A model generated the notes under the pieces. That model was not told the DNA's origin. It saw only the letters and a program-made list of their open reading frames with translations, and did not search any database. A stretch of DNA of 63,162 nucleotides, filler included, from Reticulomyxa filosa (lineage: Eukaryota > Protista > Foraminifera), in the NCBI GenBank assembly GCA_000512085.1. It is 20 parts of 20 records of this genome, joined end to end, with 100 filler letters (N's around TTAATTAATTAA, not from the genome) between each part and the next. Parts side by side here need not be neighbours in the genome. Positions count along the whole stretch, not along the records: positions 29,664 to 36,343 come from ASPP01023564.1; 19 more parts are not named here. One strand, given 5' to 3'. The position numbers were made by a program, and so were the translations under genes. Below are positions 12,333-52,416 of the stretch, piece after piece. Position 1 is the first letter of the stretch. Each line of letters begins with the position of its first letter.

Positions 12333-13710
12333 AATGTATTATGAACGAGATTATTCTGATAGTTCAGATTTTGATGTACCTCTTCGTATCGAACCAGTTG
12401 GTCACAAAGCGGTGATGCAGAAATTGAGTTGGCTATATGATTTATTGAACGCATTGATTTCAGTGGCAGACGTATCAGTAACATATCAATTTTATGTGAA
12501 AGAAGGAAGGTAATTTTGTACTTGCTTCAACCATTTTAGCTTTCACGCACATATGCGGTAAAGTTTTCATAGCTAGAGAGTGATGAAGACAAGATAGAAT
12601 AGTGACAAGATAGAGAGGAAAAAAAAAGATTAAATGAAATTACTCCAAACAAAACAAAACAAAGCAAATAAAACAAATGACAGCCATTTCCCCTTTTCAA
12701 ATACAAGGCATTTTATTTTCAGTTATTTTTGGAATTGGCTGCACCACAAGGTTATTGAAATGGATATGTTTTGTGGCATTCATTGGGTGATATTTTTGGT
12801 ATGATCCCAGCGCCGACTATTGGAGACCGGAATACTGGTTCCATTCGAACGTAACGTGGTTCGGATATTTGTATTTATACAAAGTCGTGCTCACCACATA
12901 TCCGTTGGCGCTGCTGTCCGCCATAGTAATGTCTTGGCTTGGATCGGAATCGTTTATAAAGATATTGCACCCCGTCAAGGTGCGCCGCTGCTTCGCAGTG
13001 CTTGCAATTAGTTATTTATCCTTCCAATTGTTGGCCGCATTCGGCGTTTCCTCCGCTTTTATCTTCCTCTTATTCAATCTGTGTTTGGAAGTGGCTATAT
13101 TCATCTGGATAACTTTTTTTTTGCTGTTTACAGGCATGCTTTTTTTTTTCTTATTTCTATAAAAAAAGGATTGATCCAAAGAAGATATACGTATGTGCAT
13201 GTATACATATATATACATATATGTATGTGTGTACGTACGTGACAGTAAATCAAAATTTAATAGATGAGTGTTTAGTCAAGCACTCGATGATTTTTGGAAT
13301 GGATTTTAGATACTGATCAAAGCTCTTGCACGCATTGCTATGAGTGGCTCTGTTGTTATCTCAATTGCTGCTGTTGGCACTCGAATTGAAACACGAAATT
13401 CTGCCATTCCGATCACTGTTGCTTTCATTGCATTGGCTGTTGCTACTTGTGCAATGGCAGTCATCAGTCTTTGTTTACGCGATTTGGACGCACTTTGACC
13501 ATCAAACTCATGTTCTTTCATTACGCACGTCTGTATCAAAGTAAAAATCGCAATGCCAGTACCTGTTCACTTAAATGCTTGATCCAATTTCATTACTTGC
13601 ACGCTGATCAATCCCGCAGACTTCCTCAACATATACACCAAAGAAGGCCCACTGTGTCAAACAATCAATTGTTGTCCGTGAACTCTGTTCAAACTAGTCT
13701 TCTTTAATTT
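12333..13710 (+). pseudogene. Disrupted multi-pass membrane protein gene
   Basis: Hydrophobic segments (WLYDLLNALISVADVSVTYQFY; YLYKVVLTTYPLALLSAIV; FAVLAISYLSFQLL) with intron-like gaps and in-frame stops. Confidence 0.35.
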
Positions 13711-17809: not shown

Positions 17810-18980
17810 TTTGTTTTTGGATATAGTGTTGAATGCGTAGCTTTCAGAGTTGAAAGTCAGTTGGCTATATATGCATTGTTATTTGTCAAAGAACGCAAAT
17901 TCGACATGTTTGAATTAACGAAAAATAACAACAACATTAAACTATTCGTTCGAAGAGTTTTTATTATTTGTTGTTGCAAAGATCTTTGACACAATATCTA
18001 TCGTTTATTCATGGTGTGGTGGACAGCGAATATTTACCATTGAACATTAGCCGATAGTCGTTGAAGCAAAATCTTAAAAATCGTCCAGAAGAGTATAGTC
18101 AAAAAGCATTTAGAATTATTCGCGAAATTGCGGAAAATAATGCTAACTTCAGACGTCTTATGAAGTTCCACAAGGACATCGAACTGTGAATTAACGAAAG
18201 CTCAAAGAAGATAGCTGAACTGTTGCGAGATCATTGAACAAAATAAGGTGAAAAACTTATGTCGCTGAAAGATAGGTCAGTATAATGAAAGAAAATGAAA
18301 TGTAAATATACTGTATCACTGGATAATCACAATCAAATGTTGGATAGTCACCATTTTTGGAAGATTGAATAATATATACTTGGAAGTCCTGTTTTTAGTT
18401 GATTCAATCGACAAATACTCGATCCAACAGTTAGAATACGATTGAAGAAATTTGTTTGCGTAACCAAAGATATTTGTATTTTACTCTTTACAAAGAAGAA
18501 AAAAAGTTAGTTTTTTTAAGTATACTTCTTTAAAAAAAACTAAAAACGTTTTAGATTCATTAGTCAATTTTCTTCTTGTTTCTATAAAACACGTACAAAC
18601 AATTATACGTAAACGAAAAAAATGAAAATTTTGGAAAACAAGATCGAAAAATCATTTTGATATATCGAATTGTTGACTATATGTTATCATTGATTACATG
18701 ATAATACGATTGTGTAAGAATTATGAAGGCTCAAGCATTAAGAGTCAACTCGATGACTCAATACATACGATCAAAGAAGATAATGGGAATAAACCAAACA
18801 ATGTGATTATTAGTAATTGGAAAGAAAAATTTGCGGCATATCCATCCGATTGGACAATCGAAGATTTAGTATGGCTGTTATTTGAAACAGCTTTATTTAT
18901 CAGTGGATTTAGTTTGGAGGAGACAGTAAAATTTGATGGACGTATCCACAAATTGATCAAATTGGGTCTCGCGTTTTTAG
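17810..18980 (+). pseudogene. HSP90: Cytosolic HSP90 pseudogene (middle and C-terminal domains)
   Basis: [32 protein letters not shown]; SKILKIVQKSIVKKHLELF; YCITG; [31 protein letters not shown]. Many stops and frameshifts. Confidence 0.9.
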
Positions 18981-19818
18981 TGACAGATATGATGAGCCTC
19001 AAGAAGAAGATAAAGCGTGTTGTTTTTCCTGCTGCTGAAAGAGGTGCGCAAACTCTAACAAGAAAGGTTTTCGCTCTTTTGAGCAATTTAAAACAAAAGA
19101 TTAATGATTTAAATAAAAGAGAAAATAAACAACAAGATTCAACAAGTGAAAGAGGAAAGACAAGTCTTTAAAGTTAGTAGTGTGTTGTTAGAATAAAGGG
19201 TTCCAAAGTTCACTTGTAGTGCGAGAATTACTTATTACGACATCATGAGTACAAGCGAAAAACGCAGACAAACCTGATACCAGAGCAGAAAACGCAGACT
19301 GGAAAAGGAAGATACTTCAGCAATTGGTGAAGTTTGTTAACAAAAATTTTTTGTGTTATAAGAAAGGGGGACAAAGAATTGCGAGTCGTCTTTGCTTATC
19401 ACCACTTTGTTTTTTTCTTTGTTTAATTTTAAAATTTGTTTTTTTTCGTGACCAAGAATTTTCAACAAGTCTTTTGTGAAAGTGGCTGTCAACTTTTATT
19501 GTGATTACTTTTATCTTATGTAAAATTTCTAAACCAAAATGGCAAGTTAAAAATTGTAACGTTTTTTATTTGTTAATAATTTTTGCCTTTTACTGATTGA
19601 TTAAAGCATAACATTCCTAATTTATTGGAGATGATAGTATTCTTCAGGTTGTGTTGGTTTATGCATTATTGCTTGAATGTTTATGACAAAAAACAATAAG
19701 AATATTATCAAAGGCCAAGACAAACAATCTGGGAAAAAAAAAAGACGATAAAAACAACAGTTTTTCCTTTTCCAGTAAAATGAGACGTATTCACAAATAA
19801 GAAAAGGTGTTTAGTTGT

Positions 19819-22800
19819 TTATATCGATTTATTTTCATTCTCCGGGAGTGTTTCAATATTATCGTGCTGCTGATCTTCAACATCACTTAACGATACTGAC
19901 CCCCGTGATTGCGTTCCCATCACATTGACCACAAGTGTATCCTTTGGTTGGTTGTCAGTGGACAATTTATTTTTTTCTTCAAATCTTGAGATAGAAGGCT
20001 GCGCTTCAATAGTATCGCGAGGAGATATCATTTGTTCCTCAGTGGCACTGGATTTATTATTTTTGGAATTTTTATGTTTGCTCTTTGGTGTGTTCCTGAC
20101 AGAGAGCTGTTCTACGTCGGCCATTTTGGCTTCACTATCAAGATCGACGAGAAATATGTCATCGTGTTCATCTCGAGTTCCCTTGTATCTCACCGTACCT
20201 TCATGGCTGACATCCGTATCTACCCTTTTGATTGCTAACTTTTGTTCTTCAACCAAACGTACTTCCTCGCTTTCATTTGCAAATTTTTTTTTCTTTTTCT
20301 GGCTACCGCTTGATTGTCCAGACAACGAAGGTGATGGAGACAAACCAAGTTTTTCATGAAGATGCAAACTGGCATTTCGAAATTTTATCAGCTTTGGATG
20401 GACCGGTGTTTGTGATGTGGGCAATTTAGATTTTTTGGAAACTTTTTATTGTTTTGTCATGTTTTATATGTTATATTTGCACATCATGCGAGATAGCAAT
20501 ACAACCAAAAAAAAAAATTAAACACCTACCGCGTTGTTCAATAATAAGATCCGGAATTTCTTGCAAGATTCGAAATTTGCCACAATTGTTCAAATGTTCG
20601 TTTTCCATTCGAAATACATTCCAAATACATCGACGAATAACCTCTAAAGCCGCAAAGGGCAATCTCGCATATGGTTCCTTCAGTGGTATTTCTAAACGCC
20701 ACGCGATATCATTTTTTTGTGTGCATATGTGATAACGTTTCGTTTCAAAGACCAATAAAAAATAAAAAATAAAAAAATTGGACATAACGAAAAATAGCAG
20801 GGAAGAGAGCAAAGGCCCACGCAATTCGCAAGAAGAAGTTAAGTATCATAACAATGTAATATACAATCGGCGGAAATCGCATTTTTTTGCGCAGGAACAT
20901 GTGATGAACGTCACGTTGCATCAATCCCCAATCACAAAAAATATCCCAGCTATAGGAATACAACGTAGTGCAGGCCCCAGTCACGATTCTCAAAATCAAC
21001 AACCCTGTCGACGGCGCACTCGCATAGGAAATAGAGATCATTGTAACTATTAATGCAACCAGGTACTTGCACGCGTTCAAAATGTGGTTCCCTCGTGAAA
21101 AGAGATTGTTGACTTGTTGATGCACTCCATTGTCACGTGTCCGACGCACACACTGCCAAAAGCGAATCCAATCTTTGTATTTATTTATTTATTTTTTTTT
21201 TGCGTTATCATCTTTGATAATGTATGTGCACGTATACGTGTATATGTATGCGGATAAACAACGAACAGGGTATGACAACCAACGCCGAAATTCCAGCTTT
21301 AAGATTTTTCGCATCACACACCGGGGATTGTTTGTTAGCCCACAAATCTCCACTGTTTATCTCCAATTCAGAAGACAAGCAAAGCAAACAAATTGCAAGT
21401 GAAAATGAACAGATGAAGAGTATCCGTGTACTTAAATTACACATGAAGATAAAAAAAAAAAAAAGGTTTAAACTTGAATAAGTAACAAAAAGTAAAGCTC
21501 AAATCAACAATAATGGTGAAAAGACTGGTCCATTGATCGGCCAAAAAGAAGTCAATGAAATACACAGGCTGCGACGGGGCCAGGATTTGCCGAATCCAAC
21601 TGCGAAGTAAATACTTGCGACTGGCCAAAGTGGTTTGCCAAGGGAAGAAAAGGCCAATGCCCCACAGGATCATCCACGATACGCAAACGTAACTCGGACT
21701 CCAATCCACAAGGCTGTAATCATAAGCAATGAACGACAGCAGTCCCACCAGCACAAACAGCGAGACCATCGCAGCTAAGCGGAAGATATCCCGAGACCTC
21801 ATTACCGACGCTGGATCTGCTTCCATGATGAAAGGATGATTAAATTTTTTTTTTTCAAAGTAGTATACGTCGAATCCCCAAAGCCATAAGTATAAGCATA
21901 ACAACGACGTAGCCTCCAAACTGTACCATGAATGCTTTACCACGTGATTGTCCCAAAACCCTTCTGACACTCCCCCCCATAGTAATAGACACACGATTAG
22001 CAACGTCACGCTCACGCCTCCATATACACCCACCAAGCAACTGCTTACATCCAATTCATCTTGTGCCGCAGGCGTTCGCAAATGGTCCACCGTCTGTTGA
22101 TCCTTGTCCACCAGTACTTCTTCATACACATCTTCCAGGCGCTTCAACAAGTAATCCTCAAAATATCCGCTGCCAAAGTTGCTCTCTTTAATCAAATCCA
22201 CCACTATGTTTTTCAGATCTTTCCATAGCCAAGAACATTTATCGTGCTACGTATACACACATACAAAAAATTCTTAAAAAACAAAAAAAAAAAAACATAA
22301 ACACAAAACTTTTTTAGAAATTTTGATAAAAGCAACAGCGTTTAAAATGCGATATTTGGATAATTCCCCAATTGCGTGATAAAGTTGTTTAAAATATCTT
22401 TGCAGCTTCGACTTTTCATTGGACAGATTCATCGGCTTGAGTGCGTTCTTTCCAATATCGTTTTTTTTTTGAGTTTCATGGTAGAAATTAAATTACCGGC
22501 ACTGCTGGCCTTTGCTTTCTTGCGATCTAATTTGCTCACCGCTGCTGGTTGTTCGACCTCAGTATCGATTGCATCGGTAGGTATTTCTTCTGTTGTCGTT
22601 GATGTCGCTGCTGCTATTACTGCAGCTTCCGCTTCTGCTGTTGCCGTCGCTTCAGTCTTTGGCGTTGTTACGTTTGACACGTCCTCTTTTTGCTTGCTGT
22701 TTGGTTTCGTCCCACTTTTCCGATCCTTCGGCAAGTTAGGTTCACTGGCATTACCCCAGTCTTGTTCCTGGGGCATTGACCCTTGCATCTTTGCTTTTTC

Positions 22801-29470: not shown

Positions 29471-29793
29471 AAAAACATAAATATTCTATCATCTTCAATA
29501 ACAAATTTGCATTATTTTATAAAATAAATTGTAAAGACACAACAAATTGATCACAAGATAAACNNNNNNNNNNNNNNNNNNNNNNNNNNNNNNNNNNNNN
29601 NNNNNNNTTAATTAATTAANNNNNNNNNNNNNNNNNNNNNNNNNNNNNNNNNNNNNNNNNNNNGGGGGGGAGGGGGGGGGGGGAAAAAAAAAAAAAAAAA
29701 AAAAAAAGGGACATAATTTTTACATGCAAATTATAAACCCACCCCCCCCCTTTTTTTTTAAAAAATAAATAAATAAATAAACGCATGAAACAG

Positions 29794-30416
29794 AGAATGG
29801 ATGCAATTCGAAACTTGGATTACATTGACTGGCATAGCATTGAAGGCGACGAGGAAAGCACTGATGAGATGGCGACAATGGACAAAGACGAAGAGAAGAA
29901 GAAAACGGAGACGAAGAAGAAAAAGAAGATAAAGGGCAAGTTGGAAATGACGCCTTGTTCGGAGGAAATGGTGAAAGACTTTTGCGAAAAGATTGGGTGT
30001 TACTATGAGTACAACAAGCAAACGAACACGTTTGAAAGCAGGCCGGTGAGCGAGTGGAAAATGAAATGTCCGATTCGCCAGCAGCTGCAGCCATTAAGCG
30101 GGGGTGAGTCCGGAGACCGCTGTGGAGTGTACCAGGCCATATTGTTTGCGAGAGACAAGGAAAGCCTGTCCGTGCTCGACTACTGGAAACAAGGCCGAAG
30201 TGAGCTCCATCGAGAGCTGCAACAACATATCGGCAGCAGACAAGTGCTGAAGTGGATCGACCAAGATCTCATTGAGGAACACATCGATCCCATTGTCAAT
30301 GAACTCATCCGAAATTTAGCTTACATGAAACCTTTGTATGGGGCTGACACTTTGGGATCCATTATGCATCCAAACCAAGTCTGTTTTCATAAGATTTTAA
30401 CATATACATACATATA

Positions 30417-30448
<32 letters not shown>

Positions 30449-31556
30449 TTTTGAAAGGGGATGGACATGTCTGTTCATTTTCACATTTCAAACAACTTTT
30501 TCCTTTTTGTTTTTTTTCCCCCCCCCCTCCCCTCCTCATTGTCATGCTCCATTACTTAGGTTTGGAATTTAACTGCATTGGATTCCGTTTTGAATTTAAT
30601 GGACAGTCCCATTGAAGGTGTCAATTATCCTTATCTGTATTTTGGACGGTGGCGTGCCTTGTTCTCGTGGCATATTGAAGACAAGGGGCTTTACAGCATC
30701 AACATGCTACACTTTGGAAAGGTTTTTTTTTTTGTTCATACCCCCTTTTTTTTTTTTTTTGGTTATCCTAAAAGTACTTTGTCTGTGGTAAACTGTTTGC
30801 AACTTATCAAACTTTGATCGGGTCGACGAAATCGACACTTGATACGTATCTTACGACAAACCTTGTCAGCCCAAGCGTTGAGTCCTTCACTTTGCATTTC
30901 TTTTCATTTTATTTAATTTGATTTGATTTGGTTTTGACTTGTCTGTCTGTATACTACAGTATGGCTCGGTGTGTCGTACTACGATTACAACAAAATGGAA
31001 AGCACATTGCAAACGTTGTATAAACAACAGTACCAGAAATGCCCTGTCTTTACTCGACATAAAGAGTCCTTTGTCACGCCAAGAGTTTTGCTCTTTTCAT
31101 TTTCCGCTCAATCTTATCTTTTTTTTTTTTCCCCTGTGCATGTTGCATGAAACAGACCTTAGAGCGATATGGGATCAAAATGTGCATGGCAATCCAAAGG
31201 GCAGGTGAAATCATTGTTACATGCCCAAAGTAAGTTTGTTTTTTTTTTTTTTTTTTGAGTTGGGTTTTGTTGTCTGACTCATTTGTTTGTATTGAATTAA
31301 AAATAAGATATAAAATAAAAAAAAAATAAAAAAAAATAAAAAATAAAACTCGACAATTGGAAATCAAAACAGAGGCTATCATTGTGGATTTAATCTTGGC
31401 TTCAATTGTGCGGAAGCTGTAAACTTCGCTACACCCCACTGGATTCCCGTAGGCAGAAGCTCAGCTGCGTGCCAATGCGGACTTCTTCCTGGTGCCGTAC
31501 ACTTTGACGTCGATAGCATCATCAAAAAAATAGTCGACCAGTTTCCATACTGTTAA
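29794..31556 (+). CDS. KDM4: JmjC histone demethylase, KDM4/JHDM3-like (5'-partial, multi-exon; may extend into the ORF at 31783-32429)
   Basis: [51 protein letters not shown]|PK|[46 protein letters not shown]. The HxE..H Fe triad and the KDM4-type C/H/C/C Zn ligands are present. Confidence 0.92.
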
Positions 31557-33105
31557 ACTCAAAATAACAAAAAAACAAAACAAAAATGTAAATATATAAA
31601 TATATATATATATATGTGTATATTATATATATATGTATATGTATATATTCATATGAAACGCACCATCTTTGATCATTCGTGAGAGAAGCTTGGAATGCAA
31701 TTCCAAACGCTCATCTCACTTTGTTGTGTTTACTCCTCTCCTTCAACGTATTTTTGAATTGCTATGGATTACAACACAGAAGTGATTCCTCAATTAAGTC
31801 TGATTCCCCATTTGTATGAACGTTTGCTTCGAGTGAAGCGATTCGATGACGAACATCAACTCTCGCTTTTAAGTCGTTGGAAAACTATGGACCCCAAGGA
31901 ATTGACCGTCATTTTGTCAAACATGATGAACAAGATCGATGTTGATGCCAGTACCAATGTCGATATCGATGTCAATGTCAATACCAATGTCAATTCTGTT
32001 GTTGCCTCCTCTGATGTTGATGCTGATACTAATGCTGGTGAAATTATCGCCGAGGGGAAAGAACTCCACAAACAGAAAAAAAAACGCACAATAAGTTTGC
32101 CAAATAAACGCAAGTTGAAAAAGAGAGCCATTTTGGAAATGGATCACAATGTATTCCCACAAGACTCAATCCAACAAATGACACGTGCTTTTCTTGTATT
32201 GATAAAAATTTCTTTGTCCATCTCGAACACACACCGACTCAACGTAAGAGACGAAGAACATAAGAGAACAAGAATAATGATAAGGGAAAAACATTGTCGC
32301 TCGATGCACAACTCGTGGCCAAAAAACAGATTTTTTTTTTGTGTTGTCATTGTAATGGCTTTTTTTTTATTTGGAAAGCCTACTTCGTTGTTTTGGTCAT
32401 TAGTTTTAATGTTTGAACTCGTACAATGATTGAATGTATTACAAGTCAATCTTCTTTGATTGGCTCTACTGTTCTAAACACATCATTCCTTAGAGGAAAG
32501 TATAATGGCAAATAGATGTTGACAAACATTTTAAAATGGAAAAAAAATAAATAAAAGATTTTATAATTGTAAGCGCCATCGGGCACATATTGTCGAATAT
32601 CAGTCTCACTAGGCCTTGAACAGAAAGAGGCAGTATATGCAAACGACATGACTTGCAACCTGCCTGTTTATAGGTAGTTGAAAATATCATTATTGTCTTG
32701 ATCTATATACCATATATAAATTATCATTATCACACTTTGTAGTAAGAGAACAACTGCCAAAAACAGTTTAATTGGGATCCTCGAATTGATCCAACATCTC
32801 TCAGATATAGTTTTTTAACAATAATTCGCTATAATATGCATATAAAAGAATTCTTAGTTGTAATAATTCAATCAAAAGTTATAAAGTACAACATGTTCGT
32901 TTAGGACAGTTTTTTTAAGTGCGAAATTGGGCATTATGTTTTTTTAATTAAAATAGTGCTGTGCATTAAAATTCTGAATATTCTTGATATACACCAAATT
33001 GGACCCGCTAAAAGAATAGAAGCCATTTGCCATTTTGTATTCATAGCTGCTTTTTACTTCCAAATGTAATACCCTTTTTGGAGAAAGAAAAATACGTGTG
33101 ATAAG

Positions 33106-34439
33106 ATGCCTTGTGAAAAGTTAAAATCGATCATAGACAAGTCGATACCCGGCATATTCAAGTTTCTCATTCGATATACGCCTACTCATATCACGGAGGT
33201 GTAAATTTTTTGAAAAATGCTTGTGTTCACCCTCAACAAGTAAAAAAAGAAACACAATTTGCTGAAAATGGTGCACAAAATAGAATAGGTATTGTTGGTG
33301 TAATTCATTAGTATATATTATCGTAGCTATGTTCAGTAGTGCAGAAATAGTAATATATTCGTATTTTTTGGATCTATCAATCCCTGGAGCATTGTCGGCA
33401 TTGTTATTTAACCTAGTGAAAACTGGGGTTGGGGCACTCTTGTGTGGGGCCCAACTTTTTTTTTTTAAGTATGGCGAGGATGTGCTACAATTATTTACGA
33501 AAACCTATGGCAACCTGTATTTATTGTTCATTTTTCCATTTTTAATATCTTATGTTGCAAGTGTATACAGCTTTCCAATATTTGTCAATTTCATTGTAAT
33601 TTAAAAAAAAAAAAGAGTCTCTTTGTCTCTAGACCACTCCGTTTTTTTTTAAAAAAATGCACATCCAAGCCCTCTTCTATCTTTTTTGACAAAAGATGCA
33701 AATGTGAATAGGATATGAGCTCAAAATCGCGCCTAACGTTAGCAGTTGTGTACGCGATATTGAAGGCATATTTCTTGGTGATACCAGAGTTGCTTATGGG
33801 ATTGGCATGTTTTTTTGCGTTTAAAGAAACTGTTGAGAAAGTGGATGATTTTCATAAGAAAGTGAAGATCTTCAACGATCCACATCGGAATGACTTTCAA
33901 AGGAAAGTAAGAGCTTCCTGCTTTCTATCTTCAGATGATGATATTTGCAAACAGTACAAAGACTTTTTATTAATGATCATACAAGCATGGCCACAGCGGA
34001 TTTCTTGGTGGCTCTCAACTTTTGTGTTGAGACTAGTACTTGAAACTTGGTTTGTAGTGTCCTTAATCATATATTGGAATACGCAAAAAAAACCAGGACC
34101 GAAATGGCATTTTTCCTCATGTGTCTCATTTCGGACATTATGTTATTTCTTCTTATCATAATCCCTGCAATAAGACTAAATACACAGTGGATGGACTTAA
34201 AAGCAACAATCACCAATCAATTGCGTGAAGCCATACGCAACAAAACTCATATCGAGTCTGACCAAAATAATATGTTACTGATTCTGAACTTGGCTCGATT
34301 GAATGGACTGACAATTGAAAACCCTTGTACATTTGCCATATTGGGAATTCCTGTCACTTTTACCAGTATAGGCAAAATTCTTTTCACTTTTGTTTTAGGC
34401 AAAGCCTTGTCCGTCACGAATGTGGAAGACGTTTTGTGA
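33106..34439 (+). CDS. Seven-TM protein, candidate gustatory-receptor-like (GRL/DUF3537, 7TM ion channel); introns at 33199-33283 and 33596-33711; 1-nt frameshift at A8 (34085-34092)
   Basis: About 377 aa with seven hydrophobic segments and long loops between TM4-5 and TM6-7; C-terminus LARLNGLTIENPCTFAILGIPVTFTSIGKILFTFVLGKAL. Confidence 0.6.
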
Positions 34440-35070
34440 TTGTTTTGTAACTGTGACATAATGTTGCGTGTACCGTGTGATTTTTTTTTTTGGATACTTA
34501 TGTCTATACAAACACAACTTTCTTCTATTTTCATCTGGTTGACAGTTCCAACTAAAGAAAATGTTCCTCCCTCCGTTTATTTCTCATTGCATATTTGTCC
34601 ATTTTTCCTCTTTTTTTTTCTCTTTAAAAAACTCATACACATATGGAAATTACATTTAATGTAAACTAAACTAAAGCCAAGCCAAACAAAATAAAAGTAT
34701 AACCCTGTCCCCCCTCCGTTCATTTGTTTTGTTTTAGTCACTTTATGAATCCAAATGATTTTATTTGGAGCTGTATGTTAGATATGCCATTTTTATTTTT
34801 ATTTTTTTTTTGCAAACAAGCTTCCAAAAAAAAAAATGAAAAGTTCACATTACTCTTCTAACAAACAAAGTGACAAAAACTAAACTAAAATCTTTAGAAC
34901 ATTTTGTTATAATAATAATATTTTTTATTGTTATTATTTCCTCGTAAGAGTAAGAAAGCAATCACACACAAAACTAACGAAGGGAAAATAAAGCAAGCAA
35001 ATCAACAAACAAACAAAGATTCCTTCTTTAAAAAAAAAAAAAAAAAAAAGTAGACGGAGGAGAGAGATAT

Positions 35071-35599
35071 TCATTTGAATTGACGATCCTGAAATCCAAA
35101 CGTCGCAGCTAAATGGTCAATTCTTTGATTGAGTTGATGCATTTGTTTGTCCAAATAATCTTTGGCGACTTGCCTTCCAATGAGCTCTCTTTCGACGGCC
35201 CACATTTCCGTGTGTTTTTTGTCCATCAAGCCAGGGATGCTCGCTTGCGGTGCCATCCCTTTGAACTGGACAAAGCAACAGCAGAAATGCTTGCAAAACC
35301 GAAAGCCTCTCTCACTGCCGCAGCAAAGAAGGCGGAATTCATTTTCAAAGTCGTACCCACTTCCCAGATATATCACCAGTATGGTCAGCACTCCGTTGAT
35401 CGATGAAAAAAACCCACCGACGCTGGCAATGATACTCGTCCATGTAATACGCTGTTCATGGACATAATCTACTTGAATTATGTTCCAATCCGGATACATC
35501 AATACTGCTGTTGTGTATTGAGTTTGATTCGTTGCTGTACTTTGGTAGAGCATCGAGTCATCATAATACCCACTTGCCTTATTATTACCATTACAGTTA

Positions 35600-35631
<32 letters not shown>

Positions 35632-36299
35632 GTTAAAATTTTGTATGAGGAAAAAAAAAAAAAACAAAAAAACGAAACAGAAGTGGTGGTATAAAATAAT
35701 TGCCATGGTGTGACAATGGGTCTTTGTAATTGCTAAAATCGAAAGTTCGATATTGAATGCTTCCCCAAGGTAGCAACTCCGCAGATCCCTTCTTCAATGA
35801 AAATGTATTGTCCTCAATATCATGTACGGATGCCAATCCTTCAAATTCATTACATTACATATATAAAAAATATAATATAAACATATATGTATATATATAT
35901 ATATATATTTGCTATTGTTATGAGAAAACGAACCCCAATAGAATTGATAGTCAAATCCTTTGTCGCAGATGTAAGTGATATGTTCGACCGAGTTGTTTTG
36001 GACAAAGAGCTGATCGTCTTCCAAGGCCTGGACCTTGAGCACGATCATGTCCAATTGGGCGCTGTTGTTGCCATTCAGCGTTTGTCCAATTGTCTCCTGT
36101 TCCGGCTGAATGATTATATTTTCGTCGAGGATAAAGCGAACTTGCACGCTATTATTGGTATACGTTTCACCGAGCAAGTTGTTGTCAAACCCGTAGCGAC
36201 GATGGATCACTACCCATTTGTCACTATAAGCCGTCTGGTTTCTTTTGTACTCGCTCACTGAATCTACATATACAATATCGCCATTGCTTTGGTTGGCGA

Positions 36300-36303
<4 letters not shown>
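35071..36303 (-). CDS. Membrane protein with a beta-rich ectodomain and a DEG/ENaC- or PAC-like final TM helix (5'-partial, multi-exon)
   Basis: TAVLMYPDWNIIQVDYVHEQRITWTSIIASVGGFFSSINGVLTILVIYLG follows an N-glycosylation-rich region; Cys-rich cytosolic tail. Confidence 0.45.
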
Positions 36304-36339
<36 letters not shown>

Positions 36340-36699
36340 TTAANNNNNNNNNNNNNNNNNNNNNNNNNNNNNNNNNNNNNNNNNNNNTTAATTAATTAAN
36401 NNNNNNNNNNNNNNNNNNNNNNNNNNNNNNNNNNNNNNNNNNNCACAAAAATCCAACTACTATAAAAAAATTTTTTAATCAATATAAAAATTAATTTTAC
36501 TAGTAAAAAAAAAATTCGGACTTTGACTTGAGGATTCTTGTTGTGTTGAAACAACTTGACTTTTTCGACGATTTTGAGATATATCGATTATCTACTTGTT
36601 CTTAGTTTACTTGAAGTGATCTCGAGATAATATTGAAGATTTTTCACGATAATCGTTAATGATGATAATATAAATTTAATTTATTATTTTTTAAATATT

Positions 36700-37700
36700 C
36701 GGATTATTTAAAAGATATAACCAGAAAAACGAAAAAGAAGTTGTAATGACGAATGCTGGAAATGTGGAGGTCATTGTCATAAACAAAAGGATTGTATTAA
36801 AGACAAAGAATAGAATGAAGTAAACGTGATTGAAGAACAAACTAATAATGATAGAAAACTTGCGAGCTACATACTATCTGTAGTTAGTTTAGACAGTGCA
36901 CTAAAATCACCAGATGGAATGCAAATACAAGTTCAAACAAAGAATTGGGTATAATACATGCATTAGCGGACACTGGAGCTTCAATTTGTGCTATGAAAGA
37001 TTCTATTGCGCAAAAATTTAAAAATCTCATAAAAAAAGATGCCAGCCATTTTTGGTTGCATATGCAGTTGGTATCATTAAATTGATAGAAAAATTAGAAC
37101 TTACTTTAAGTAATCCAAAAAATACATTAGTAAAAATATTTAAAGAAAATTTTTATTTAATTCCAAATTTACCTCACGACTTTCTCTTATCTCGAAGTGT
37201 TTTCCGAAACTTGGCTAAAAATTATCCAAAGATTGGAAAACCAAATGATCAAATTACGATAAAAATACTGAAAAAATTGATCAAAGGAAATCAAAGGCTA
37301 GTAGCAAATATTAGTTTTGATATTGGCAAGTTGAAATGAAAATAAATCTTAAACCAGGCACAAAACCAATAAAACAAAGGCCATATCCACTTAATATCAA
37401 ACACCAAGAAGAAGTCAAAAAACAAGTAAAAGAACTCGAGATTGCTGGCATTATCAGGAAAAGCTCGTCTCAATTTGCAGCTCCTGTGGTATTAGTAAAA
37501 AAAGAAAGGAGGTTCCTTAAGAATGTGTATGGATTACAGAAAATTGAATCAATTCACAATACGAGATGAATGGCCAATACCAAATATAAATGATTTGTTA
37601 AAGAAGTTGTCAGATAAAAGGTATTTTCAAAGCTCGATATTCGATCAGGATATTGTCATGTTCCAATTAGGGAAAGTGATCGCAATAAAACTGCTTTCAT
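36700..37700 (+). mobile_element. Degenerate Ty3/Gypsy LTR retrotransposon (gag Zn knuckle, protease, start of RT)
   Basis: CWKCGGHCHKQKDC (CCHC, 36754-36795); ALADTGASIC; PIKQRPYPL..IIRKSSSQFAAPVVLVKK; MCMDYRKLNQFTIRDEWPIPNI; KLDIRSGY..KTAF. Frameshifted. Confidence 0.93.
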
Positions 37701-37814
37701 NNNNNNNNNNNNNNNNNNNNNNNNNNNNNNNNNNNNNNNNNNNNTTAATTAATTAANNNNNNNNNNNNNNNNNNNNNNNNNNNNNNNNNNNNNNNNNNNN
37801 AAAAAAACAAAAAG

Positions 37815-38557: not shown

Positions 38558-40775
38558 CATTTTTTTACCCTTTTTTAATTAAAATAAGAAAAATATTCAA
38601 CTGAACAATATTAAAAAAAATGCTTGCATATCTTTGAAACTCAACAACGCCGTAACCATTTAATACTAATGTTTAATACATGCTGTTTTGTAAATATGAA
38701 ATGAAAGTGTTGTGATCTCCACAAGAAAAAACTGAAAAAAAATTTAATAAGAAATATGTGTAATTGAATGAAGTCATCTAATGTTGTGTAGGAAATCTGG
38801 AGTAGAAAAGTGAATGTTGTTGGAATAGAGAAGATAAATTTTAAGTAGTTTATACATTGACGTCCAAAAAAAAAGTGAAACTCCGAAAAATCAAGTTATT
38901 AAAAAAGTTATTATTTTTTCTCTTAGTTTACTTAAGTTAAAAGTTTGTAATTTTACATACTATTGAACTTATACTGTTGTTCAATTGACTAAAATTCGAA
39001 AGTTATATCTTTGTTGGTTTAGAGTATGCAGTAGAATGCAAAGTAAAGTTGGCACATAAAACGGCACATTATAGATATTATTGATTTTCTTCATGAAAAA
39101 CAACACATAACTTTTTAAAAATATACAAATAGTGTAGTTTTTAAATATCTTTTGTTTTTTTATTAAATCTTTCCGAGTTATTTCAACATTTCGTTCTTTA
39201 TTTTGTTAGATTAGTATTTGTGTTTTTCAATTATTATTTTTTTTGAAATAGAAAAAATAATAACTTTTTAAATAACCTGATTTTTCATGTTGTTCACTTT
39301 TTTTGGACGCTACTGTATAAAAAGATATATTATCATTATAACACGTTCTGACATATGAGTTATACATAGCTGATGTAATACAGTAGAACAAAAAAGAAAC
39401 CTGACACATAAAACTATACATTATAAAGCTGATTGATTCTATTAATGAAAAAACAACATTTTAGCATAATTGTTTAAAAACTACGAAAGATAAAATAATA
39501 ATTTTTAAAAGTATATGTATGACTTAAAAATTCGTAAAAAAGAAACAAAAAGATTTAAAAATTTCATCTTGGTGATATAAATTTGATTTATATTCATTCA
39601 TACGAAATTTTGAAAATCATATGAAAAAACGTTGATTTTAACGAATATGTGGGGAGTCTACTGTGAAGAGCTACACTAATGTAATACGAAAAGGTTTTAC
39701 TCGAATTAGAGTGACTTTCAGTAAATTAATAATAAATCAAAATGACAAAAGGAAAGTAAGAAAAGCAAGGAAGTAAGAAGTAGTTGGTTGATGAAGTTTA
39801 GCATACTGGGGATTCCTCAGTTCCATTTGTGTTCAAGTATTTATAGTAGGGACTTGTCCTACATGTATATAAAAGTTATTGTAAAACCAATTTCATATCT
39901 AAAAACTACGCTTATGCAATTTATGTATGCTAATTTTTTGGTCATATAATGTAGTTGCAAATATTTGGCTTTTTATCATATCTTTCATAATTTTAATATT
40001 GTTATTTATGATAACTTTTTTGATTTAAATTTTTTGAAAATGTTTCGTGTTTTTAAGTGTTAACTTTCTTTTGAATTCTACTTTATATTATGTATGCACA
40101 TATTGTATCTATTAATATTTTTTGTAAGCAATACCAAACAATTTCTTTTTTTAGAAAGCGATGTATAGTTAATCAAATATGTTGTGTCCAGAAAGTGATA
40201 GAGTAAATGTTTATTTGTTAAAATTAAACTAGATTGTCATTAGAATATTATTCACCAACCAGTTTCACAAACTTACGTTACTAAGTTTGTGTCATAACAA
40301 CATTCGTCGTTACTGTTTGTACGTAATAAAAAAACTGCTACTGTTTTCCAATGAGTACACTTATTCCATTGATTCAAATGGACATTCGACTGCTATATCC
40401 AACATCGCCAAAAGTACTTCGTTTTTTTTTGAAAAAGGGGTATGACTTACTCACAATCTTCAGTACACAAGAGCAGACCGTCACAACTGATAATACTGAC
40501 CATTTCCACTCTTTTAATTAGCTCTTGTTTTATTTTTAAAAAATAGACTATTAGGAAGGCAACGTCTTTCAATAAAGTTTTATTTTTTTGTTGATGTTGA
40601 AAGCGTGATAGCTAATATTATAGTCAGTTTTTAAAGTGGTCCACATAATTTCATTCTCACTCTTTGTTGAAACTTGCCAGAATTTTTATAAATAAATTGT
40701 TTTACCGGCCTGATCTGAAAACTTTACTTGAAAAGGACCGTCAAGGAAGAAAATTGAAACTCACGCCCTGAAATC

Positions 40776-42211
40776 ATGGATTTTGGAATCTCGTTATTTG
40801 CCTTTTTTGTGAGCATTGTACAGATTATATTGTATTGTTGTTGCATGTATTGGCTGTATAAATTTTCCAAACTTCGGTGGAATTTCATGATGAGAAAAAG
40901 GTACGCGCAAGTATCAATGATAACGAGTATGTGTTGGGGACATACAATATTGAATGGAGCAATAACGACATTGCGTTATTCGTTCGTATTGCCCGACAAA
41001 GATAGAGTATATAATAATTTTGTGCACTACCTGTTGATTTGGGGTGGTTTGTGTGCCTTATTTGCACGAGTGTGGCTGGTAAAAGCACTTAATTGAATTA
41101 CATAAAGACACATGTGTCTATGTAGCATGTGTATATGTAACATGTGTATATGCGTATGTATAGATGAATATATATGGATATATTTGTGTTGGAACATAGG
41201 TATTCTACGATATCAAATGGACCAATTCGAACAAGAGGTGTGACTGGCAAGTGCAATTGAACCCAAAGATGAGTTCGAAAGATTGGTTTGTGCGTCACAA
41301 AAGAACCTACGGAAATGAAACCTGGATAAAATATAGACTTTTAGGATATTTTGCATTTTCTATATTGTTGATCGCTCTGACGCTTACCATTCAGTTAGCA
41401 CATTACATTTACATATATGTATATGTGTGTATATATGCATATATGTATGTATATATATGTATATATATGTATATATATGTATATATATATGTATGTATAT
41501 GTTTGTATATGTATGTATATGTTTGTATATAGGTATGCTTCTGGAACTGCCGTGCCGGTGATATCGATATTTTTGGTAACGTTTTTTGCGCCATTATTTG
41601 TGGTTCTGGTAACGATCTACGTGCGAACACCACGATTTCTGGACATGCTGTTTGTGCGGAATGAGCTGCGGTACATAATGAAAACGATGACTAGCTATAG
41701 TGTGATGTATTCGTTGTTTGTCGGTGCACTGTACGTGTGTGCGGTGCGAGATAAGGGATCGTACAGACACCGCGATTTACCCATTTTGGCGTGCCTAATG
41801 TACTTGTGCTTGTCGGGCCATATGACCGTGGTGATATTGGTCCATTCGGTATACGTAGAAAGAAAGATGAGCATTTACTTTGCATCCCATATCCATCACG
41901 TGAACGACAACGACGACGACCAAGTGACGATGACGATGACGATGACGACACAAAGTAATCCGTCAATGGGAATGCATTCCACTATGACCGGCGCTGTTGT
42001 GGACCACTCCATTACGGAGAAGAGCAAAGACCAAAGCCATTTGCAAACCCCGTTGGTATTGTTGATCGATGACAAGCACGAGACAACAAATACAAATATA
42101 AATATAAATACAAATATAAATACAAATACAAATATAAATACCAATACCAATACCAATATCAATACCACTGTTACGACAAATGCAGCTACAATTGCAACTA
42201 CAGCTGCAACT
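40776..42211 (+). CDS. Seven-TM protein of the 7TM-RGS (AtRGS1-like) type, 3'-partial
   Basis: Multiple TM segments with MMRKRY after TM1, ARVWL|VFYDIKW and FLDMLFVRNEL (D-x-F/L-x-I/V-R-x-E-L). The expected RGS box would lie beyond the contig end, so it is inferred only. Confidence 0.6.
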
Positions 42212-49153: not shown

Positions 49154-50788
49154 TTAAATGACTCCTTGTCGTTTTAATTGTTCGAAAGTGCATTTATTGA
49201 AGACGTTGCCGTCATTGTCCTCAAATTCCTCTTCTTCAGAGGGATTCCATGACAATTGTACTTTTTCTCGTTTGAGTTTATCACACAGAGCTTTGGCATC
49301 CTCACGTTCAGTGATCATGTGATAATCCTTTGTGTTAGGTATGCCCAATTTCCTCATGTTATGTGCATGGCGCCATTCACGAAAATGTCTTTCAAAAGCC
49401 CTAGGACCACGATATTCCACTCCTCCACAAACATTGCAGCGAAAGGATCTATTCAACTGACGAAATTTGAAGAGCCAATAAGGGATGGGTTTGCCATCAA
49501 AATCCAAAGGGACATTTTTGGGATTTAAGTTTTCGATGGCATCTTCATCGTTTTCTGGGAATTCCATGGTTTCGGTAATGATCTGTTCATTGGTACTTTC
49601 GAACATTTCCCTGCGAATTTCGGCGTATGTCATCGTCTGTTTTTTGTCAAGGTAGTCTCGCGTCGCATTGATATTGTCCTCCAAAAGCTCCGCAAACAGC
49701 TGCACCTTAGTTTCCAACAGTGCTATCGGCTTTTTGTCCACACACTTTTTCGACAACATGTGATACTTCAACACATTTGCATTGTCAAAGGCTCTATCGC
49801 ACATGAAGCAGAAAGCTTTGGGTTCTTTTTCTTTTTCACTTTCTTTTTCTTTGCCATTGGTATTATTCGCATTTATATTTGTATTTATATTTGTATCTGC
49901 ATTTGCATTTGCATTTGCATTTGCATTTATATTCGCATTTGCATTTGTATTTGCATTTGCATTTGCATTGCCTCCGGTATTTTTTTTATTCACTTTTTTT
50001 TTTTCGACCGATGTGATGCCAACCGACATTGTTGCATTTGCGGCAGAGTCGGATCCATTACCACCGCCATCAACGCCACCTTTTTCGACATTTTCATTTG
50101 CGGACAAAGCGGCAACGGGCAACTCGTTGGTCCACTTTTTCTTGGTATCCTCCGTCCAAGGTCGTTGCCATCCCTCCACTTTTCTTTCTTTCCATTTCTG
50201 CTCGAAAATCTCCTCGCATTTCGACAAGATCTTGTCCGTTGGTGCCAAAGGCCGGGTGCGTTTGAAAAATGAGACCAAGTAATCCAACACTTTTTCATAA
50301 AATCTTTACCCATTTTTTTTTAAATTTTTAAAAAATTAAAAAAAAAAAAAAAATGGGTAGAGATAATAAATAATGTTTATTGAAAAAATTCCAAACTGTT
50401 GGTATGGCTTTGCTTTTTTGCTATTGGAGATGCGCCAAAACTCTTGGAAGCGAAACAAAAATGTTTTGTAATCCAAAGGGACTGTTTCTTCGACAATGCG
50501 CTCGACCATTTTGACGTTGCCAATGTTGCGGGCAATCTCGTAGGGCGTGCACTTGGCCAACTCGATCGGGTCGGGTTCCATCACTTGGATCTTGCGCTTC
50601 ATCATACTCACGCCTCGGAATACTGCCAAGTTTATGTACTGTGTGTACAATCCATTCATGTCAACGTACCGACCATGCCATTCTTCTCCGGTGAATTCGA
50701 CCTCGGCTAATTTCATATGTTTTTTTTTTTTTTTTTTTTTTTTTTGTGGTGTTTTGTCAGTTCTTTTTCTTTTCAATTTTGCACCCCC

Positions 50789-50824
<36 letters not shown>

Positions 50825-51210
50825 GGGGGGTGCAAAAGTTTTTTTTTTTTTTGGACAATGCCGACTTAACGTTCCAATGGCAAAATTTCACGTGGGACAA
50901 AAATATTCGGGTTTGCTTTGTGGTACCTGCGGATATCCGACAACCGAGAATAAAACACATTCAGATAGCTGCGACATGACATATCCTCGATTTCGTCTCG
51001 CAGCTTTTTGTCCTTGTCCTCATACAGAAGTGCTATCTCTTTCGCGTAAGTCACCACGTTCGTTAGCCCTTCTTGCATTCGGTGGTCTTGGTGCAGTTGC
51101 TGGCGGCTATTTGCTACTTCCTCTGATTGTAAGTCTCCTACTACATCTTCTTTGGCTGCTTCTATTGCTGAGTGCAGCCAGCGGAGTCTCTCCAATCTCG
51201 AATTAGACAT
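49154..51210 (-). CDS. SF3A3: Splicing factor 3A subunit 3 (SF3a60/PRP9); introns at 50707-50870 and 50304-50396
   Basis: FYSRLSDIRRYH; EP|EVEFTGEEWHGRYVD; LDYLVSFFKRTRPL; NPKNVPLDFDGKPIPYWLFK; C-terminal Zn finger CNVCGGVEYRGPRAFERHFREWRH; EEEFEDNDGNV..LKRQG. Confidence 0.95.
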
Positions 51211-51524
51211 AATCAAAGATAATGTGGAGAAAAAAGCCCCTATAATAAAAAATGAACGTTACTTGTCTTTTAAGTGATTTCCATTATCTTGAGGTTGCCG
51301 ATGCATAAAAAAGAGCCTGCATGTGGCAACTAGCCTTTTTCGTGGATTCTTGCACAGAAAAATTGAAATACTCTGTATGCAAGCAGCAAACTTTTTTAAA
51401 ATCTGTGTTTGTAGCAGTAAAATCATTTTTGTTTTTTTTGTGTTTTTATTGAAAAAAATTTGGACAACATATTTTTTTCGACAAACAAGTAAGCAGTTTT
51501 CGCTGCTTCTTTGATTCTCGAAAT

Positions 51525-52416
51525 ATGAGCCAGGATTTTTTGTATAAGGACGATACCATCAACAAAGAAGCTATGACTGACTATAGTTGTGCAGCAACGG
51601 ATTTCCTCTTAATGTCGTCAGCATGGTATTGCAGTATTTTGGTAAAGAATTTTGCAAGGTCAGGTACTCATCGTGTACTACACAATGACGAACTGCGCTA
51701 TATTCAGACCCATTTTTTTGTTTGTTTGTGTGTGTAAGTATTTTTTTTTATTATTTGACTCGTTTGATAAATAGACAAACAAACAAAAATAATACTAATG
51801 CAGTGAACATAAAGTTCAATTTCAACCAATGTCGCAAACGTGGACCTATTTGATGCTAGCATCATTTTTAGGAACGTTACGATTTAGTGGATTGCAACAC
51901 GTAAAATTGATACCATTATTGCATCGAATAGCAACCGTGATATCGGGGCAAGTGGGCTTGTCTTTGTTGGGCGTTCAATATATATTGTTGTCATTTCCGC
52001 AGTCGTATATAACGAACAAGCTGTTTGGGCTGCACTTAGACTCGACGATACATCGCATAGAAGTGAGTTTATGGATATTGGTAATATGCTGCTATTGTTT
52101 GAACATTCAAATGGTAGATATTTTAATTCCATTAATATTTGGGTTTGTTCCGATCTTGGCTTGTATTTTCATTTGCGGAAAATGGAACGTATTTATTCTC
52201 GGTGCCATTGGCATATCTTTAGTTTTATCTTCGGTCATCATTGTTCGAGACGACCCCAAACATCGCAATACCTTATGTGGCATTCGGTCCATTCATTGGT
52301 TCCATTTGTTATTGTCTTTAAGTATTTATGTCCACACTATCACTTTAATCAATTTGTCTTTGGGTGGAGAGGTTTCCGTCTGGGATTCGATTGCTTTTAA
52401 GTTTTTAAATAAGTGA
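51525..52416 (+). CDS. Multi-pass membrane protein of unknown function, one intron
   Basis: Exon 1 SCAATDFLLMSSAW; exon 2 LASFLGTLRFSG..IHWFHLLLS; about 7 hydrophobic segments with conserved-looking His residues. Confidence 0.6.

Follow-up and report, generated by a model that had tools for sequence, protein, structure and literature searches.

Does the foraminiferan Reticulomyxa filosa (PMC13746701) encode a chemosensory channel related to the insect gustatory and odorant receptors (Gr and Or), and is the gene that would encode it intact? The question is raised by a locus on the + strand of a 6680-base piece (positions 29664-36343) of the 63162-nucleotide (nt) stretch of DNA analysed here, hereafter the window, in which a first-pass annotation had seen a candidate for the superfamily of seven-transmembrane ion channels (7TMICs), encoded by three exons and interrupted by a frameshift at a homopolymer. 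With moderate confidence, we read the locus as a predicted three-exon gene for a protein predicted to have the Class-A 7TMIC fold, likely a tetrameric ligand-gated cation channel, whose frame break is likely an error of the assembly.

Gene model, topology and predicted fold

The start codon at 33106 is the first ATG after an in-frame stop located 13 codons upstream. Upon removal of two introns, both of which begin with GTAA(A/T)T and end with AATAG and thereby join three open frames (Table 1), the frame stays open for 260 codons up to a run of eight adenines (A8), a T11 run within exon 2 leaving it intact. Past A8, 115 codons of another frame remain open before the stop at 34437-34439. The model frame contains no stop, while the other two + frames contain 4-13 in each exon stretch. 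Bridging the break with one X yields a product of 376 residues with seven Kyte-Doolittle segments, in good agreement with the seven segments and about 377 residues of the first-pass annotation, whose peptides ending helix 6 and forming the last segment are also found in the sequence. Hereby, the acceptor at 33711, together with exon 1 and the 14 residues that open exon 2, lies outside homologue coverage and is predicted from splice consensus, frame and helix geometry. The public model of the gene, identified by protein search as 'hypothetical protein RFI_27112 [Reticulomyxa filosa]' (X6M9E8, 297 amino acids (aa), here P0001), starts at 33329, takes 33765 as an acceptor and splices out 34050-34096 as an intron of 47 nt. 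It is truncated, lacking exon 1, helix 1 and the turn between helices 5 and 6; the 54 nt in dispute at the second acceptor (33712-33765) are open, have a guanine-cytosine (GC) content of 0.44 and code for the beginning of helix 4 and the short loop before it.

With helix limits taken from hydropathy, the soluble stretches measure, from N- to C-terminus, 35, 7, 23, 7, 60, 10, 64 and 4 residues. The outer loops (7, 7 and 10 residues) are shorter than the cytosolic ones (23, 60 and 64), as in 7TMICs, and lysine plus arginine residues number 25 on the side of the long loops and the N-terminus versus 4 on the short-loop side. From the sequence we predict a cytosolic N-terminus and an outside C-terminus, again as in 7TMICs; the inside N-terminus and the long loops after helices 4 and 6 had been proposed before. 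A G-protein-coupled receptor (GPCR) topology, with N-terminus outside, C-terminus inside and a cytosolic tail, was considered and rejected, as helices 2, 4 and 6 are each followed by a long basic loop and helix 7b by just 4 residues, the reverse of the GPCR pattern. Seven or more segments arose in 32 of 3000 shuffles of the protein and a 7TMIC-like spacing in none of the 3000, under a spacing rule that was set after viewing the real pattern and is lenient for the real protein.

A phmmer search of 1.84 billion representatives returned two matches at E <= 0.001, namely P0001 itself and P0002 (RFI_22257, 206 aa, E 2.6e-10), a paralogue from a different contig of R. filosa; tblastn found no second gene copy within the window. 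P0002 spans helices 4-7 unbroken and, since its public model begins in helix 4, is probably truncated by annotation, too. Identity to P0002 is 25% over 104 columns in the 5' part of exon 3 and about 30% over 113 columns in the 3' part, and the alignment score of 245 lies far above chance (mean 36, maximum 73 in 500 shuffles). Hereby, the stretch from helix 6 to helix 7b is best kept between both paralogues, and this region is likewise the best conserved of the superfamily (Himmel 2023, 10.1101/2023.08.30.555482).

Structure models were evaluated for P0001 and P0002, both of which lack exon 1 and in which helices 1-3 are poorly modelled. A re-entrant helix at the N-terminus (TM0) is not among the criteria by which the authors of the superfamily screen define 7TMICs (10.1101/2023.08.30.555482). 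In the P0001 model (m1becf390e9a3), DSSP assigns H240-255, E262-265, E268-271 and H272-287, a helix-hairpin-helix arrangement, and in the P0002 model H148-166, E172-179 and H181-205, the same split of helix 7; a bipartite last segment had been noted in the first-pass annotation. In P0001, helices 4 and 6 measure 43 and 46 residues and helix 5, which the annotation gap shortens, 34; the values for helices 4, 5 and 6 in P0002 are 33 (cut), 51 and 49 residues. The models predict that the long helices 4-6 extend together with 7a into the cytosol as an anchor domain, with 7b as pore helix. In the ESM Atlas, the best rows for P0001 are Gr-like and DUF3537 clusters with TM scores of 0.72-0.73 over 270-284 of 297 residues, followed by a marked fall to the first unrelated family (0.45), and language-model features point to 7tm_7 and DUF3537. 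Together with the topology and the split helix 7, these matches support the superfamily assignment made before, and the models make a seven-helix protein with the Class-A 7TMIC fold (insect Gr/Or, DUF3537) very probable.

Channel function and the frame break

Given this fold, a gated ion channel is, by analogy, a good expectation, and for external chemosensing in particular we see an even chance. The mechanism is drawn by analogy with the insect proteins BmGr9 and Orco, the scheme of tetramer, ligand and gating being that of BmGr9 (PMC11100771). Four subunits would meet at the cytosolic anchor (helices 4-6 and 7a) and at pore helix 7b, a small molecule from outside would occupy a pocket formed among helices 1-6, helix 7b would be moved by helix 5, and a hydrophobic gate would open through which cations including Ca2+ would enter. 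A dissolved cue (food, prey or metabolite) could in this way depolarise the pseudopodial network or evoke Ca2+ signals in it, and the protein is a candidate sensor for this cell, whose large network serves in foraging.

The strongest alternative, though on the unlikely side, keeps the 7TMIC fold and denies the sensing of outside chemicals: the protein might be a channel that is intracellular or constitutive, a subunit with a non-conducting or regulatory role, or a heteromer partner of its paralogue. The published helix 7 (TM7) motif is (T/S)Yhhhhh(Q/K/E)(F/L/M), of which unicellular members keep 1-3 positions (PMC7746228). In homologous register each R. filosa paralogue keeps just 2 of 4 positions, outside the animal Gr/Grl criterion; another register gives 3 of 4, but at the start of helix 7b and with 3 of 5 hydrophobic residues. 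The gate-equivalent residue, with the register taken from the pairwise alignment, is small (Ala) in the gene product versus Phe in P0002, and function beyond insects is described as essentially unknown (10.1101/2023.08.30.555482). Against this alternative, unicellular members and insect tuning Ors often diverge from the motif, which is said not to preclude channel function (PMC7746228), and conservation between the paralogues is highest in the anchor and pore regions. As to the C-terminal signature that had been taken as typical of the superfamily, NPxxFxxxG is indeed present, and it also occurs in 1 of the 2 complete Gr C-termini compared; it is a fair resemblance and no definition.

Whether the gene is intact depends on the reading of A8. 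Opposite the gap in P0001, P0002 carries exactly 16 residues (48 nt), and 47 nt plus one base make 16 codons. A frame-switch scan against P0002 is best at the A run, where adding one base gives an alignment free of gaps (score 245); removal of two bases gives 235, a 38-nt intron 222 and the annotated 47-nt intron 214. Since neighbouring switch points score 238-243, the break site is fixed only to about 10 codons. The scan thus favours the frameshift model over the public annotation, and independently places the best switch where the homopolymer frameshift had been proposed. We consider the single frame break to be probably a homopolymer error of the assembly, and the organism's own gene to be intact, since a second lesion is absent and the assembly is both fragmented and homopolymer-rich.

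Distinctly less probable is a real break in a protein of the same fold, i.e. a young pseudogene or null allele. Here, the message would end after 283 residues, at 34159-34161, and as helices 6-7 would be absent, no pore would form. The assembled sequence itself speaks for such a break and against an intact gene, as A8 stands as assembled and the uncorrected translation stops at these positions, and living genomes also slip at poly-A runs. Conversely, 375 codons show no other lesion, both halves align to P0002 gap-free at the break with the conserved C-terminal residues kept, and the break lies exactly on a homopolymer, in a contig of 6.7 kb with 24 A/T runs of at least 8 and in an assembly with an N50 of 3609 (PMC13746701).

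That the public annotation is right, with 34050-34096 a real intron and a protein lacking 16 residues at the turn between helices 5 and 6, is very improbable. The 47 nt show GT..AG in the correct phase with an A-rich 3' end, their GC content of 0.32 lies between the exon and intron values, and the frame is open after splicing. However, P0002 has exactly 16 residues there, the score falls from 245 to 214 (mostly gap cost), the seventh hydrophobic segment is lost (6 left), the donor GTTTGT is unlike that of the other two introns, and the length is about half of the 87 bp that introns of this species average (table in PMC13746701). Four alternative introns to acceptor 34096 were also rejected, three giving 6 segments and one a weak seventh (1.27); both of the two that were scored align worse to P0002. 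As the public model falls short of seven segments (with the 47-nt intron there are 6 even if exon 1 is kept), a topology filter as in the 2023 screen would likely reject it.

Several results weigh against the 7TMIC assignment as such. Pfam 7tm_7, 7tm_6 and DUF3537 gave no match above the curated cut-off in the three exon pieces, P0001 or P0002, the scans of which returned sub-threshold unrelated matches only; both VIA lists are headed by soluble bundles; and Foldseek of the models gave no significant match. Searches against PDB sequences, with P0001 and with a two-sequence profile, gave none below E 0.1. For an iterative link to known 7TMICs this profile is all that can be built, P0002 being the sole homologue; word-seeded searches found P0001 alone among 703 and 1289 candidates and P0001 plus P0002 among 5731, and of the 191 metagenome and 255 viral candidates from DNA pattern scans none was confirmed. 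The best 50 rows of either VIA list contain no GPCR, rhodopsin or adiponectin-receptor chain, which does not imply their exclusion. These results would fit a polytopic membrane protein of unrelated kind (GPCR-like, transporter or orphan), the long helices of which would match Or/Gr only as a generic three-helix bundle. Such a protein is nevertheless very improbable in view of the N-terminus-inside charge and loop pattern, the split helix 7 with hairpin in both models and the Atlas scores with their drop for the first unrelated family.

Comparison with known 7TMICs and viral look-alikes

Thousands of 7TMICs are described from unicellular eukaryotes, bacteria and archaea, those of eukaryotes falling into Class-A (Or/Gr/DUF3537-like) and Class-B (PHTF-like, with a long first loop) (10.1101/2023.08.30.555482). 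The R. filosa protein is Class-A-like because its first intracellular loop is short, and membership in Class-B, with which it shares the core fold (Atlas TM 0.61), was rejected on the same 23 residues. With the Class-A gustatory receptor-like proteins (GRLs) of unicellular eukaryotes (PMC7746228; 10.1101/2023.08.30.555482) it shares seven helices, the inside N-terminus, short outer loops, long helices 4-6, a split helix 7, a short first cytosolic loop, a TM7 motif kept in part, pairwise sequence similarity that is slight or absent, and a small paralogue set; it differs in coming from a foraminiferan (Rhizaria) and in lacking a sequence match to described members. From the solved insect Gr (BmGr9 8vc1/8vc2, DmGr43a 8jm9, DmGr64a 8jme) and Or structures (ApOR5-Orco 8z9a/8z9z, AaegOR10 8v02, AgamOR28 8v3d, MhOR5 7lic) it differs by an identity of 5-14% in structural alignments, and the insect motif TYhhhhhQF is not kept. 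Plant and algal DUF3537 (PF12056) resembles it in the Atlas (TM 0.72 over 284 residues for P0001, 0.75 over 197 for P0002; feature score 0.93) and in a TM7 motif that is itself largely unrecognisable (PMC7746228), but differs by the lack of a PF12056 hidden Markov model match and by a third cytosolic loop that is about 60 residues here and longer in DUF3537 (PMC7746228).

The protein is likely a new member of a family that has been described before in many unicellular eukaryotes. The accessible main text of the Himmel 2023 preprint (10.1101/2023.08.30.555482) does not mention Reticulomyxa, Foraminifera or Rhizaria, that of PMC7746228 neither Reticulomyxa nor Rhizaria, and the organism and four accessions are absent from the 8 supplements of the latter; the 2023 eLife paper, with 12 of its 53 supplement files covered, names Rhizaria once, merely in spelling out SAR. 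The literature searches made here found no paper on foraminiferan or viral 7TMICs, although the taxon cladogram, preprint supplements and Dryad tables may well hold rhizarian entries. The pair from a foraminiferan would close a gap in the taxa covered by these texts and leave the picture of the superfamily unchanged, as unicellular eukaryotes, bacteria and archaea are already covered; since non-insect 7TMICs are known almost only as predicted structures, each new lineage informs what the ancestral protein did.

The feature look-alikes that come nearest to P0001 are unnamed clusters in which giant viruses predominate (389-420 aa; 313 aa), possible viral 7TMICs. The two top feature matches in the ESM Atlas have 56% and 68% viral members (Nucleocytoviricota), and one virus-dominated cluster reaches TM 0.72 over 270 residues. 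Foldseek of the P0002 model against viral structures (BFVD) gave no match at E <= 0.001, with Catovirus A0A1V0SCD1 and Mimivirus A0A4D5XEV6 (440-449 aa) at TM 0.55-0.56 and a non-significant E of 0.8-1.0, and sequence relatives are found neither in viral contigs (0 of 255 confirmed) nor, besides P0001 and P0002, among the 1.84 billion representatives. The viral link is therefore a lead only; the gene has ordinary introns. The most far-reaching reading, in which gene and paralogue are the first foraminiferan, possibly the first rhizarian, 7TMICs, orphans in sequence that broken gene models have concealed, that form a ligand-gated tasting channel of the giant pseudopodial network and whose closest look-alikes, uncharacterised proteins of giant viruses, hint at an exchange between amoeboid hosts and their viruses, is improbable as a whole.

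Features of the locus and other genes in the window

Table 1. Features of the candidate 7TMIC gene (window positions).
Feature	Positions	Strand	Description
Predicted exon 1	33106..33200	+	Start codon, cytosolic N-terminus; absent from public model; phase-2 GTAAAT donor fits exon 2
Predicted intron 1	33201..33288	+	88 nt, GTAAAT..AATAG, phase 2; GC 0.295 vs 0.34-0.40 in flanking exons
Exon 2	33289..33595	+	Helices 1-3, first cytosolic loop 23 aa; 4 + 7 stops in other frames; P0001 covers 33329-33595
Intron 2	33596..33711	+	116 nt, GTAATT..AATAG, phase 0; extended to 33765 in public model
Exon 3, 5' part	33712..34084	+	Helix 4, 60-aa cytosolic loop, helix 5; aligns to P0002, long helices in models
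A8 homopolymer	34085..34092	+	One-base frame break; inside 47-nt public-model intron 34050-34096
Exon 3, 3' part	34093..34439	+	Helix 6 into cytosol, helix 7a, hairpin, helix 7b, stop
Split helix 7	34263..34424	+	7a 34263-34310; NPxxFxxxG turn and beta-hairpin 34320-34358; predicted pore helix 7b 34359-34424

The window (1-63162) consists of 20 contigs (1.0-10.7 kb) separated by N44-TTAATTAATTAA-N44 spacers, and since these are joined separate contigs, neighbours across spacers are not linked. On the contig of the locus, a tail-to-tail neighbour (35074-36343, - strand, cut by the contig end) is spliced, with a large soluble part and a single C-terminal hydrophobic segment with a GG motif, which we take to recall the last helix of DEG/ENaC-like or Erv41/46 proteins; it has no Pfam or PDB sequence match. 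Further multi-helix membrane-protein frames lie at 51799-52413, 40758-42211 and 12791-13159 (all +), three scanned pieces of which gave no Pfam match at E <= 0.01. An EXS-domain gene (XPR1/SYG1-like; PF03124, E 2e-25) occupies 20474-22246 on the - strand, and an open frame of 1067 codons with helical repeats fills a whole contig at 24902-28104 (- strand), its end matching SecA DEAD-like (PF07517, E 9e-11). Broken frames at 36888-37756 (+ strand) show a putative resemblance to retrotransposon protease and reverse transcriptase, a degraded-looking frame at 18677-19168 (+ strand), possibly a pseudogene fragment, shows one to the C-terminal part of HSP90, and a spliced gene at 49157-51258 (- strand) recalls what we take to be splicing factor SF3A3/Prp9.
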